Position numbers: made by a program. From the IMG/VR virus record IMGVR_UViG_2531839236_000014: DNA of 4,990 bases; one strand, written 5' to 3'. The stretch is from a virus (Duplodnaviria; Heunggongvirae; Uroviricota; Caudoviricetes). Position 1 is the first letter of the stretch; each line of letters opens with the position of its first letter. This document shows, one piece after another, positions 1 to 4,990 of the stretch.

Positions 1-3000
1 ATGGTTGAAATCATGGAGATTGCCATGCGCAAGGCTGGCAACTCTCCGGTAACTCCGGATGGTTGGATAAGCTGTAGTGAGCGAATGCCGGAGAAATACG
101 ATTTCGATATCTGGGTATTCTCTCCATCCAGAGGTGTTCTTGACGGGCTACAGTGGGATGGCTCGATGTTTACTGATGATGAATATCAGTTCGTTATTCA
201 TGACGCCACGCATTGGATGAGAAAAGTATATCCAGCAGCACCGCAGCAGGATGGTGAATGATGCCGCCAGTTAAAGTTGTGATTATCACTTTGGTGATGA
301 TAGTGATTGCGAGAATCATGTCTGGTGAAATTGTGTGGATATGGTAATGGCTAAGGCAGCAGCAGAGCGCAACTAACAATCCTCGCACTCGCGGGGATTT
401 CTTTTATCTGAACTCGCTACGGCGAGTTTTGTTTTATGGAGACAAGAAATGTCAGATTTGGCTATGAAGGTTTTGAAATGGCAATCGACTGACTATGTTG
501 GCATCAGTAGCGCAACTCTTGCCTCAATCGCATGTGGACTGAAAAAGAATATCTATGGTCATAGCTTCGGTGCTCCACATGACGCAGCCGATTTCAGACG
601 ATGCGTTGCACTTGTTGCACTTTACATTGATGAGTTTGAAAACGCGCTATGACGAAAAAATACACTCTCATTTACGCAGATCCCCCCTGGACATTCCGAG
701 ACAAAGCAACCGATGGTCAACGCGGTGCAAGTTTTAAATATCCGGTCATGAGTCTTCTGGATATCTGCCGCCTCCCGGTATGGGAACTGGCAGCCGATAA
801 TTGCCTGTTGGCTATGTGGTGGGTGCCTACACAACCACTTGAAGCATTGAAGGTTGTAGAAGCGTGGGGCTTTCGTCTGGTGACGATGAAAGGATTAACC
901 TGGAACAAATGCGGGAAAAGACAGACCGACAAGCTGGTCATGGGTATGGGTAGCACCACTCGCGCTAACAGCGAAGACTGCCTTTTTGCAGTGAAAGGAA
1001 ATCTGCCTGAACGCATTAACGCCGGAATAATCCAGTCATTCACTGCACCGCGCCTTGATCACTCCCGCAAGCCGGATATGGCGCGAGAAAAACTTGTGCA
1101 ACTTCTTGGCGATGTTCCCCGGATAGAACTGTTCGCCCGTCACACCTCGCATGGATTTGATGTCTGGGGTAACCAATGCGGAACACCATCCATTGAGATG
1201 GTTCCGGGTATTGTTAAATTTCTGGAGAAAACCAATGAGCGAAAAAACGACGTTGACAAAGGCATCACCAGTTGAATTAAGGCAGTGCCTGGAAATCGCA
1301 AATCAACTTGCCAGAAGTGGAATACGCTTTGTTCCGATCCCGATCACAGCAGATACAGAACTTCATCTGTTTGGTGAAATTCTTTCCCGAAAGCTGGATG
1401 AACTGGAAAAGCTGGTAGAAGAAGCTGACACCTCACCAATCGCATAACACCCCCACCGACATTAAAATATCAGGAGAAAAAAATGAACGCCGTACTCACA
1501 GAATTGAACAAATTAGGAAAAGCAACAGCCGACAGCATTTCTAAAGGTCTCAATATTGATTTGAATGACGTCATTGATACGCTGTGGAAGTTGAAAAACC
1601 AGGGGATCGTAAAGGTAAAAAACGGCATCTGGCAGGCAGTAGAGGGAGTTGGAAGCAAAACAGATATTGATTCAGTTCAACCAGTTCAACCAGTTCAGCC
1701 AGTTCAGCCAGTGCAGAACAACATTATAGGTGACCTGCTACGTAAATCACGGAAAGAAGCGCGCCGCGCCGGGCGGAAACAGAAACGATGGGAGGGTGCA
1801 TGTAAGGCGTTGCAAGAACTGAATAAATACCGTGACTTGATCAACGAATTGTCAGAGTGAACGTAGCGGGAATCCACGTCCTTTAGGGCGTGGATGATAT
1901 CAGGCTGTTGAAATACATGTAGAAAAGGAGCGCATACTATGGAAGTCAACTTAATGACCGAAAAAGAGGTTTCTGATTTGTTACAAAAAAGGCGCACAGC
2001 TTTGTATAATTTGCGAAAAAAACACGGATTCCCGGAACCAGTACTTACTCATCCGGCGCGATATAGTCGTCAGGCCGTTGAACAATGGCTTAAAGCCGGA
2101 GGAATTAACCGAGCTGTTTAGCGTGCCAGAAAATTTTATCAGCATACAACTCATACGCATCTTTCTGTTCCGACAACCAGTCGTGTTTATTATACACGGC
2201 CATAACTCCCCCAAGTTCATGCCCCAGCATTTTTTCAGTGACGTGGGGCATAATTCCTTCCCCAGATAAATTCGTTACCAGAGAACGCCTAAAATCATGC
2301 GTTCTCCATTCAGGAATATCAATTTTCTCCCTTAACTTTTTCATGTACAAATTAGCCGACGAACGATCAATAGGTTTATCTATTTCCTGCCCGGGGAATA
2401 GCACATCAAAACCCGCATTAAGCAATCTCTCGATATAAGGTTTAACCTGAGTGAATACCGGACGCCGGATAATATTCCCCATTTTTGAATGCTCTTTTGG
2501 GGTTGTCCAGACCAGATCTTCCATGTTGAACTCACTGGCTGTCGCGAGACGTAGCTCAGAAAGTCTGGCCCCCCATAGCAATAGCAATTGATGTAACACC
2601 TTGTTGGAAGTAACTACTTTTGAGTTCTCCAGCGCCAGCCAAATTTTTGCCAGTTCCGTATAGGTAAGTACACGACTCCCTACATCTGGTTTTTTCCCAA
2701 TATTCTTAACACTAAGCTTGAGTAATTCGCATGATGGGATTAACTGGCGGCTGATACACCAGTTAATAACTGAACGCAGTTGTAACAACAAAACACGAGC
2801 CTTTTTCTTGTTGAGGCTTTCTTGTTTGTCAAAGAAACGAGCCCATGCCGATACTGGGATACTGGCAACTGGCGAGCCTTCAAACTGTGTGTACATAGTG
2901 TTGTACACGACGGATCTGTAAAGCGTCTGTGTATTGGGTTTCAGATCAGTAACATACTTATCCCACCACTGATCCAGGCATTCTTTTAATGTCAGTTCGC

Positions 3001-4990
3001 CGTCACTGGGCGCAAAATAATTTTTAGGGTTAACTCCCTTCATGTACAATGCGCGCATCTCACCGACGATAACACGCGCGTCCTTCAGTGAAGTAGACGG
3101 ATAGCGCCCGACAGTAAGACGTACTGGCTTACCATTCCAGCGATAACGGTACTGAAACGTGATAGTTCCTGCTGGAGTAATCCGCACACTTAACCCGTCA
3201 CCATCGGTGATTTCAGCAGGGCCAGAGTAGGGTTTTCCGTAGAGGCCTCGTAGTTTGGTGTCGCTCAGTGCCAATGCTTTATATCCTGTACACAAGTTTA
3301 TAATGTATTCTGTACTCAATATGTACGCATTAGCAAGTGAACAAAACACTTTTCAACGCAAAAGAAGATAATCAACCATGAACAAAAACAAACTTACACC
3401 TTGATTTTAAAACCATAAAGACGGTATTATCAGTCATATGGTGAACAACCAAAATCAATACGCAACAATGTCCTCTTAGTTAAATGGATATAACGAGCCC
3501 CTCCTAAGGGCTAATTGCAGGTTCGATTCCTGCAGGGGACACCATTTATCAGTTCGCCTCCATCCGTACCAGTCCGCAAAATCCCCTGAATATCAAGCCT
3601 TCCGTAGATTCACAGTTCGTCATGGTTCGCGTCAGATCGTTGACAGCCGCACGCCATGACGGGTAAAAAGTGGATAAAATAATTTTACCCACCGGATTTT
3701 TACCCATGCTCACCGTTAAGCAGATTGAAGCAGCAAAGCCGAAAGAAAAACCATACCGCCTACTCGATGGTAATGGCCTGTACCTTTATGTCCCTGTATC
3801 AGGGAAAAAGGTATGGCAGCTTCGCTACAAGATTGACGGTAAGGAGAAAATCCTGACCGTCGGAAAATATCCGCTTATGACTTTGCAAGAGGCAAGGGAT
3901 AAAGCATGGACTGCGAGGAAAGACATCTCGGTTGGCATCGATCCGGTAAAGGCGAAAAAGGCTTCGTCTAACAACAATTCCTTTAGTGCGATTTACAAGG
4001 AATGGTACGAGCATAAGAGGCAAGTCTGGTCAGCCGCCTATGCGACTGAACTTGCAAAAATGTTTGATGACGACATTTTACCTATCATCGGCGGCCTTGA
4101 AATTCAGGATATTGAGCCGATGCAACTGCTGGAAGTAATCCGCAGATTTGAAGATCGCGGGGCAATGGAGCGAGCCAACAAAGCACGCAGAAGATGCGGC
4201 GAGGTTTTCCGTTACGCTATTGTCACCGGAAGGGCTAAATATAACCCGGCACCTGACCTTGCTGAAGCCATGAAGGGATACCGCAAGAAGAACTTCCCGT
4301 TTTTACCTGCCGACCAGATCCCGGCATTCAACAAAGCACTTGCAACATTTTCAGGAAGTATCGTATCTCTCATTGCGACCAAAGTTTTACGCTACACAGC
4401 ACTAAGAACGAAAGAGCTTCGTTCCATGCAATGGAAGAACGTCGATTTTGAAAACAGGATTATCACCATCGAGGCCAGTGTGATGAAGGGACGCAAGATT
4501 CATGTGGTTCCGATGTCGGACCAGGTTGTTGAACTTCTCACTACGCTAAGCTCCATCACTAAACCAGTATCAGAGTTTGTTTTTGCCGGGCGCAACGATA
4601 AGAAGAAGTCAATCTGTGAGAACGCTGTACTGCTTGTGATCAAACAAATCGGCTATGAAGGTCTGGAAAGCGGTCACGGATTCAGGCATGAATTCAGCAC
4701 GATTATGAACGAGCACGAATGGCCTGCTGACGCTATTGAAGTGCAACTAGCACATGCCAACGGCGGATCTGTGCGTGGGATTTACAACCATGCTCAGTAT
4801 CTCGATAAGCGCAGAGAAATGATGCAGTGGTGGGCGGACTGGCTTGATGGGAAGGTGGAGTAGTTATTACAACGATTCTTATAAAAAAGAAAAGCCTTGC
4901 ACATATAGCAAAGCTTTTCACTTCTCAGGATTTCTTACACCAAGAAACCATCAACAATAACAAAATGCAATTATTATATGTTAACTACAT

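Follow-up and report, generated by a model that had tools for sequence, protein, structure and literature searches.

Opposite ends of one tRNA gene: a probable Stx2a-converting prophage at the 5' end of argW, a CPS-53/KplE1-type integrase at its 3' end, and a promoter-like element in the phage attachment arm

Islands that integrate at the 5' end of a tRNA gene are rare among tRNA-targeting elements, accounting for 159 of 3,919 in Islander. One such group comprises the Klebsiella arg2 islands of the "D-loop sublocation" (integrase clade I.d), for which passages of the describing paper give a site made up of the 5' acceptor half, D-stem, and D-loop of tRNA-Arg, with the island upstream of the tDNA, and also mention strains in which each end of a single tRNA-Arg tDNA carries an island (bioRxiv 10.1101/2020.11.02.365908). 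Two elements have been described at argW. The KplE1/CPS-53 module of Escherichia coli K-12 (IntS, TorI) uses a published 16-nt core, CTGCAGGGGACACCAT (PMC2951348), and a Stx2a prophage within argW has been reported for strain TW14359 and for clade 8, with a right-junction PCR that runs from intW to intS (PMC8309913). Stx2a prophages at argW (phiStx2a subtypes) were likewise described in Ogura 2015. In GenBank, HQ424691 labels the repeat that accompanies these insertions an attL of 25 bp, and LC616031 and LC645442 call it a 24-bp "duplication due to insertion". The arrangement of the argW junction is thus already known, both as annotation and as a PCR target.

We analyzed a 4,990-nucleotide stretch of viral DNA, referred to here as the window, in which the original prediction had placed two P4-type integrases back to back around one complete tRNA gene. 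The window very probably spans the junction at the int end of a 933W-like Stx2a-converting lambdoid prophage in argW, at the point where it meets the int end of a resident CPS-53/KplE1-type cryptic prophage. Positions 421-4990 showed 99.9% DNA identity to EC4115, TW14359, and other O157:H7 genomes, and the left flank in EC4115/TW14359-type genomes is a Stx2a-carrying prophage between yfdC and argW. Positions 619-4863 were 100% identical to phage VT2phi_272 (GenBank HQ424691), and phage 86, phi296, and many Stx2a-converting phage records matched at 99.3 to 100% identity across the int-att region. The integrase, the excisionase-like gene, the 25-bp core, and the neighboring intS are all the same in the window as in the argW Stx2a-converting phages with which we compared it (VT2phi_272, phage 86 under AB255436, and the EC4115/TW14359 prophage). 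The stx genes lie ~25 kb from the junction in EC4115, i.e., beyond the 4,990-base window, and the same integrase also occurs in phages that are not Stx phages, such as 733R5 and Hafnia phage yong2 (85 to 87% identity).

The junction was present in 209 of 5,426 complete E. coli genomes, and across all genomes the median number of locus matches per genome was one. Related integrases, 57 to 91% identical and in all but one case at least 67%, also diverge from tRNA-Arg(CCT) at a distance of ~170 to 200 bp in 20 other Enterobacterales. Positions 1-900 were contiguous in no complete E. coli genome searched; positions 1-420 are joined differently there, so that the source phage is a mosaic variant. 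EC4115 and AR-0428 carry ~1.7 kb more (DUF4752, Ant) where in the window the DUF551 gene is followed almost at once by the methyltransferase region, and the mosaic difference is confined to the accessory region.

That region, positions 1-1860 on the plus strand, holds early-left accessory genes of a Stx2a-type lambdoid prophage, as indicated by Pfam matches and by a gene order and annotation that are the same in EC4115 and VT2phi_272. Pfam identified a DUF551 gene (1-261, plus), an MT-A70 methyltransferase gene (649-1275, plus), and, also within this stretch and on the plus strand, DUF1382 and DUF1627 genes. An excisionase-like HTH_17 gene (1939-2121, plus; PF12728 match) is convergent with the integrase gene, whose last 17 nt it overlaps, and its homolog beside the same integrase is labeled "excisionase" in AP012534 and LC710660. 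NCBIfam returned nothing for this open reading frame and only generic integrase matches, below cutoff.

The left integrase (2105-3274, minus) is an intact 389-amino-acid protein with a TTG start, as judged from the reading frame, Pfam, the RefSeq start, and relatives; the fear that it might prove a decayed remnant was unfounded. The minus-strand open reading frame 2105-3349 bears Arm-DNA-bind_3 and Phage_integrase domains (Pfam), the RefSeq start corresponds to position 3274, and the homologous codon is ATG or GTG in 16 relatives. The protein retains the R...HxxR...Y catalytic residues and is 99.7 to 100% identical to the integrases of sequenced Stx phage genomes. It is named intW (ECSP3297) in the O157 literature (PMC8309913), and we assign it to the ~62-kb Stx2a-converting prophage.

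On the other side, intS (3706-4863, plus) encodes the intact, 385-amino-acid integrase of a CPS-53/KplE1-type cryptic prophage, with 98% identity to K-12 IntS and the corresponding RefSeq annotation in EC4115. Its position is canonical, as the original prediction had it: the 16-nt core CTGCAGGGGACACCAT can be read directly at the tRNA 3' end (3530-3545, plus), the same place as in K-12, where CPS-53 is annotated as beginning 15 nt before the end of argW. The CPS-53-type attL arm with the intS promoter region follows (3546-3705, plus), identified by comparison with K-12 and a promoter consensus scan; the attL/PintS region is near-identical in K-12, PintS is known to overlap attL (PMC2951348), and the scan found a promoter-like ATGACG-N16-AATAAT for intS at 3656-3683 (plus). 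The window ends just after intS, and farther downstream the O157 relatives differ from K-12 KplE1 in carrying P22-like ejection-protein genes and then csc genes. A search of the 21 kb downstream in EC4115, with one mismatch allowed, found no further copy of the 16-nt core, so the right-hand element could not be delimited there; for the same reason it looks like a remnant in the O157 relatives and is probably not excisable in them.

The description of both integrases as P4-type suits IntS: its alignment with P4 Int spans the whole protein (402 aligned positions at 35% identity, E 1e-77), and it has PF13356, PF22022, and PF00589 domains. It suits the left integrase less well: this protein aligned with P4 Int only over the N-terminal 270 amino acids (23% identity, E 8e-11) and matched PF13356 and PF00589 with no PF22022 match; it has the domain plan of P4 Int, yet the two proteins are not close. 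P4 resembles the window in its heterobivalent tyrosine integrase with an N-terminal arm-binding domain (PF13356), in an int gene adjoining an attP with flanking arm repeats, and in its tRNA target; unlike the left integrase, which uses the 5' end, it uses the tRNA 3' end (leuX). Since the left integrase and IntS share only ~29% identity over the 93-amino-acid N-terminal arm-binding region, they are not duplicates of each other, in agreement with the original prediction.

Between them lies argW, tRNA-Arg(CCU) (3470-3544, plus), for which ARAGORN and Rfam each returned one tRNA-Arg(CCT) and which is identical to K-12 argW over all 75 nt. Two intact, unrelated tyrosine integrases therefore do flank one complete tRNA gene and read away from it, their genes only ~430 bp apart; the tRNA searches, catalytic residues, and domains agree on this, and every predicted coordinate was correct. 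Homology to K-12 starts exactly at the tRNA 5' end, and in the genomes sampled that do not carry the junction it likewise starts at 3466-3469. The comparison with the empty argW locus that had been proposed located the site precisely: a three-way alignment of the window junction, the yfdC-side prophage end in EC4115, and the empty K-12 site left only a 25-bp identity block in common, TGTCCTCTTAGTTAAATGGATATAA (3469-3493, plus), which is also annotated in GenBank. This core consists of one upstream base and tRNA bases 1-24 (5' acceptor strand plus D-stem/loop). Bases 1-24 of argW could be phage- or host-derived; the rest of the gene is host DNA.

The attachment site had been sought either in 3350-3469 or in the 5' part of the tRNA, and only the second location held. 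Positions 3350-3468, taken at that time for an argW intergenic and promoter region, are phage DNA within the integrase-proximal arm of the phage att site (3275-3468, no strand assigned), which occupies the place of the native argW upstream region, has no homology to K-12 upstream of argW, and is identical to the attP of phi296. The arm contains three direct TGTACNCA repeats (3287-3294, 3311-3318, and 3322-3329, plus) lying within 3287-3329, over the int ribosome-binding and promoter region. The motif has 4 matches in the window versus 0.42 expected, recurs in the far arm of attP, and is kept both in relatives and in a sister clade that targets sbcB, making the repeats candidate arm-type integrase binding sites. 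The sbcB-targeting integrases, of the Stx2c-phage type, are 54 to 63% identical to the left integrase and have similar repeats beside int. Insertion is again at the 5' end of the target, which receives a new 5' end (a new sbcB start codon), although in this case the target encodes a protein instead of a tRNA.

Within the same arm, a consensus scan found a sigma-70 promoter-like element, TTGATT-N18-TATTAT (3401-3430, plus), that is aimed at argW, the -10 hexamer ending 39 nt before tRNA position 1. Upstream of the tRNA in 21 related elements, conservation was highest at TTG (-69 to -67) and G.TA..AT (-47 to -40), and the mean match to the promoter-like element was 7.8 of 12 versus 3.5 +/- 0.8 at other offsets. 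We conclude that this element probably drives the rebuilt tRNA. It is also the one point of this locus for which we found no statement in the literature examined: an explicit remark that elements integrating at the 5' end of a tDNA supply a promoter themselves was not found in the literature searched, including PMC9897764, and the passages of the Klebsiella arg2 island paper (bioRxiv 10.1101/2020.11.02.365908) contained no discussion of promoter replacement.

The conserved bases could instead serve recombination proteins. Under this possible but rather doubtful alternative, the TTG...TAnnAT of 3401-3430 would be an IHF, Xis, or Int site or part of a divergent int promoter/operator, and the rebuilt argW would be poorly transcribed or silent. 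The element does sit inside an att arm, where such sites are expected, and a minus-strand promoter-like match overlaps it at 3433-3404. Stx phages also have their own Arg tRNAs, and argW may be dispensable, in which case strong expression of the rebuilt gene would not be required. Read on the other strand, TTGAT is ATCAA, the core of the IHF consensus, which is found in 14 of the 21 relatives; however, the full IHF consensus occurs in only 3 of them, and for this reason we did not adopt an IHF site as the main reading. What is invariant in the relatives is TTG, not ATCAA, and those that lose ATCAA keep TTG. Moreover, invariant TTG and TA..AT at 18-nt spacing are a sigma-70 signature, and their register relative to tRNA +1 is fixed across the 21 diverged relatives amid surrounding sequence that averages 47% identity. 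Several of the sbcB-targeting sisters, too, have their best outward-facing promoter-like match at a similar distance from int. These patterns favor a promoter for the rebuilt argW over a recombination site.

The two remaining accounts of the back-to-back layout can be judged from the far prophage end and from free phage. The far end lies beyond the window, and its core copy was observed in a close relative, EC4115, which has one 25-bp copy at each prophage end, 62.26 kb apart; the direct-repeat search that had been suggested thus succeeded in this genome for the phage core and failed for the 16-nt core. On the yfdC side of EC4115, a 24-nt tRNA 5' stub stands beside the native argW promoter in the same orientation as in argW, and no tRNA was detected at that junction. 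An element upstream of a regenerated tDNA, with a same-orientation stub at its other end, is what is seen in 5'/D-loop sublocation islands; the Klebsiella arg2 islands belong to another species, carry other cargo, and are likened to this locus by site and layout. The attP of free phage (phi296, phage 86) runs from the int-proximal arm through the core to the far arm, is equivalent to the two prophage ends joined at the core, and holds only tRNA bases 1-24 followed by unrelated sequence.

The attP sequence refutes a tandem array at the tRNA 3' end, in which the attP of the left element would have carried a near-complete argW copy and the original gene would lie elsewhere; such arrays are common, with 125 cases of tandem islands at one tDNA in Islander, and mobile DNA does flank this tRNA on both sides, but the stub at the other prophage end and the median of one locus match per genome leave that reading with practically no probability. 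Just as implausible is a single composite element that holds both integrases within one att pair, or a layout produced by inversion or rearrangement, as two divergent int genes so close together might suggest: K-12 and most E. coli have intS beside argW without the left element, the left element occurs as free phage without intS, homology breaks exactly at the 25-bp core, and the two cores (3469-3493 versus 3530-3545) are distinct and do not overlap. Two different mobile elements abut the same tRNA, as had been predicted.

The mechanism we propose starts from what was observed in both cores, both junctions, attP, the intact integrases, and their distribution, and it has two elements share one tRNA gene via its opposite ends. 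The Stx-phage integrase recombines the 25-bp core, and because this core is the tRNA 5' end, the phage comes to lie on the 5' side of argW. The phage attP gives a substitute 5' end, which restores beside the phage int gene a complete tRNA with the wild-type sequence, and the native argW promoter and the 24-nt stub are left ~62 kb away, beside yfdC. IntS acts at its conventional core at the tRNA 3' end, which places its element on the 3' side. Each int gene adjoins its own att arm and points outward from the tRNA, producing the back-to-back picture. We infer that the rebuilt argW is transcribed from the phage-borne promoter at 3401-3430 and that the TGTACNCA repeats serve the integrase as arm-type sites, in addition to overlapping the promoter and ribosome-binding region of int.

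Use of opposite ends would explain how a single gene of 75 nt accommodates two elements at once that do not compete for one site. The occupancy of argW also has practical value: a Stx2a phage in argW is a marker of the highly virulent O157:H7 clade 8, and the junction is for this reason already used in typing. At this locus a tRNA gene loses its host promoter to the phage insertion and apparently receives a phage promoter in exchange, which would explain how insertion at the 5' end avoids silencing the target. More broadly, we consider it an evenly balanced proposition that the integrases of the left-integrase clade and their sbcB-targeting sisters form a lineage specializing in gene 5' ends, with an attP whose dedicated outward-facing promoter takes over the rebuilt target. 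If this is true, the host tRNA-Arg(CCU) in every lysogen would be expressed from phage DNA that overlaps integrase/excisionase binding sites, and the recombination proteins could therefore modulate tRNA-Arg(CCU) expression.

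The only tRNA gene in the window is argW, a plus-strand tRNA-Arg(CCT) gene at 3470-3544 whose 75 nt all match K-12 argW. To its left, a minus-strand ORF ending at 2105 encodes an arm-type DNA-binding domain and a tyrosine-recombinase catalytic domain. RefSeq places its start at position 3274, giving 389 aa, and the homologous codon, TTG in the window, is ATG or GTG in 16 relatives; for both reasons we favored this start over a longer ORF from GTG-3349. To its right lies intS (3706-4863), encoding a 385-aa integrase with 98% identity to K-12 IntS. The original prediction of two integrases flanking one tRNA-Arg was thus confirmed, and its coordinates for the left gene were upheld by the start-codon comparison. 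Its "P4-type" label suits IntS (35% identity to P4 Int, full length) and is loose for the left integrase, which shares the domain plan of P4 Int and 23% identity over the N-terminal 270 aa alone. The two integrases resemble each other weakly, and only in their N-terminal part. An excisionase-like HTH_17 gene (1939-2121, plus strand) converges on the left integrase gene (2105-3274) with a 17-nt overlap (2105-2121), so the latter lies outside the pL-driven operon and must be driven by a separate promoter within the att arm, the phage DNA between integrase and core.

Window 421-4990 is ~99.9% identical to Escherichia coli O157:H7 EC4115, TW14359, and about 140 further complete genomes, and 619-4863 matches the VT2phi_272 phage record in GenBank at 100% identity. 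In EC4115, a 62-kb 933W-like prophage carrying stx2a, Q, ileZ-argN-argO-type tRNAs, and short-tail morphogenesis genes lies between yfdC and argW; right of argW, intS is followed by a small number of P22-like ejection-protein genes, beyond which lies the csc/dsd region. The phage accessory region has a mosaic joint within 1-620: positions 1-617 share 99% identity with a DUF551 region found in other O157 prophages, and 1-900 was not found as a contiguous stretch in any complete E. coli genome of the collection searched. Between the genes for DUF551 and for an MT-A70-family adenine methyltransferase (649-1275, early-left region of the prophage), EC4115 and O157 strain AR-0428 carry ~1.7 kb extra (DUF4752, Ant antirepressor, and a small ORF). 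A 9-bp tandem repeat (1673-1712, 4.4 copies) encodes the PVQ PVQ PVQ PVQ run of a DUF1627 protein, whose gene measures 378 nt in EC4115 versus 369 nt in AR-0428; this difference of one unit may reflect repeat copy number. In AR-0428, the phage integrase gene is interrupted by a copy of IS1203 (IS3 family) that leaves two pseudogene pieces (locus L044, 3738-6220), which should lock its Stx2a prophage in place. IS1203 likewise lies under the match in 2017C-4109 and Vac_07.1.

Against the empty K-12 site, the window shows no relationship 5' of the tRNA; near-identity begins one base ahead of tRNA position 1. Alignment of the EC4115 yfdC-side junction, the empty site, and the window junction yielded a common core of exactly TGTCCTCTTAGTTAAATGGATATAA (3469-3493), present once per prophage end, 62.26 kb apart in EC4115. 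There, the yfdC-side junction retains the native upstream region and a 24-nt tRNA stub, and tRNA detection at this junction found none. The free-phage attP of phi296 (phage 86 is alike) consists of the 3275-3468 arm, the core, and then the sequence inside the yfdC-side junction. Together, the junction alignment, stub, and attP structure indicate that the phage recombines inside argW bases 1-24, comes to lie 5' of the gene, and regenerates its 5' end. Use of the 5' part of the tRNA, one of the explanations first proposed, is therefore borne out. The others fall away: a tandem insertion is excluded by the free-phage attP, which carries just those 24 tRNA bases, and a rearrangement by the junction falling at the core and attP matching the joined ends. 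About 100 nt past the core, a GC-rich hairpin, GCCCCGCACTTCAGTACGGGGC, occurs in the attP far arm (L007, about 865-895, minus strand) and at the yfdC-side junction (L003, about 8880-8910); it could terminate transcripts from the orphaned native argW promoter reading through the stub.

The right element uses the opposite end of the gene. The published KplE1/CPS-53 core, CTGCAGGGGACACCAT (PMC2951348), lies at 3530-3545, overlapping the final 15 nt of the tRNA, and CPS-53 is annotated in K-12 as beginning at this point. The two cores are separated by 36 bp without overlap, so both elements are able to coexist. No second copy of the 16-nt right core was present within 21 kb in EC4115, where this element probably represents an immobile remnant whose integrase is still intact.

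Both the locus and its general layout are documented. GenBank HQ424691 already annotates a 25-bp att site, the tRNA, and both integrases, and LC616031 and LC645442 annotate a 24-bp "duplication due to insertion." An Stx2a prophage within argW of TW14359 has been described, with right-junction PCR priming from the phage integrase gene intW and from intS (PMC8309913), and Stx2a phages occupied argW in all clade 8 strains tested (PMC4645166). According to the Islander paper, 159 of 3,919 tDNA islands carry a displaced 5' fragment. In Klebsiella, islands have been described at the 5' end of a tRNA-Arg gene, at a site spanning the 5' acceptor half, D-stem, and D-loop, with one island at each tDNA end in some strains. 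The predicted arrangement is real, correctly placed, and essentially correctly interpreted, at a junction that was already known.

The int-argW junction is present in 209 of 5,426 complete E. coli genomes; in sampled genomes lacking it, homology begins at 3466-3469. A wider scan, with each species represented by a single genome, gave 33 loci. At 20 of them, the integrase diverges from a tRNA-Arg(CCT), starts about 170-200 bp from the tRNA 5' end, and shares 57-91% identity with the query (at least 67% in all but one). Hosts include Erwinia, Enterobacter, Pantoea, Brenneria, Xenorhabdus, Providencia, Salmonella, Morganella, Proteus, and others. Most other loci (54-63% identity; for example, L026-L032, L035, and L037) lack a tRNA. 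In these, the element borders sbcB at its 5' end, roughly 200 bp upstream of where the integrase starts, and contributes a new start codon (sbcB protein QPTF-FHDYETFG...). Judging from these sequences, targeting of 5' ends appears to characterize the entire integrase lineage.

Within the att arm, three TGTACNCA repeats at 3287-3329 are enriched versus chance and reappear in the far arm, with conservation extending even to the sbcB clade. These candidate arm-type sites overlap the int ribosome-binding/promoter region, an overlap that parallels the KplE1 paradigm. GAACAA-type direct repeats (GTGAACAAAAC, ATGAACAAAAAC, and GGTGAACAACC at 3337-3349, 3380-3392, and 3440-3450), similarly positioned in related elements, may be a second class of putative protein-binding sites.

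The rebuilt argW requires a new promoter, since insertion displaces the native one. In a consensus scan, TTGATT-N18-TATTAT was located at 3401-3430, directed toward the tRNA. We stacked 21 related upstream regions ungapped, anchored on tRNA +1; mean pairwise identity from -100 to -1 was 47%, and the top-information positions were TTG at -69 to -67 and G.TA..AT at -47 to -40. Sigma-70 hexamer matches at that register averaged 7.8/12, the highest value of any offset, versus 3.5 ± 0.8 at the others. A weaker reading takes TTGAT as an IHF core, but the full IHF consensus occurs in just 3 of the 21 relatives, and those without ATCAA still retain TTG. We therefore consider the 3401-3430 element reasonably likely, on this pattern of conservation, to be a functional promoter for the tRNA. 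This conserved phage-borne promoter-like motif is the sole element not stated in the literature examined, and a modest refinement: after loss of its native promoter, argW would be transcribed from DNA that the phage itself supplies.
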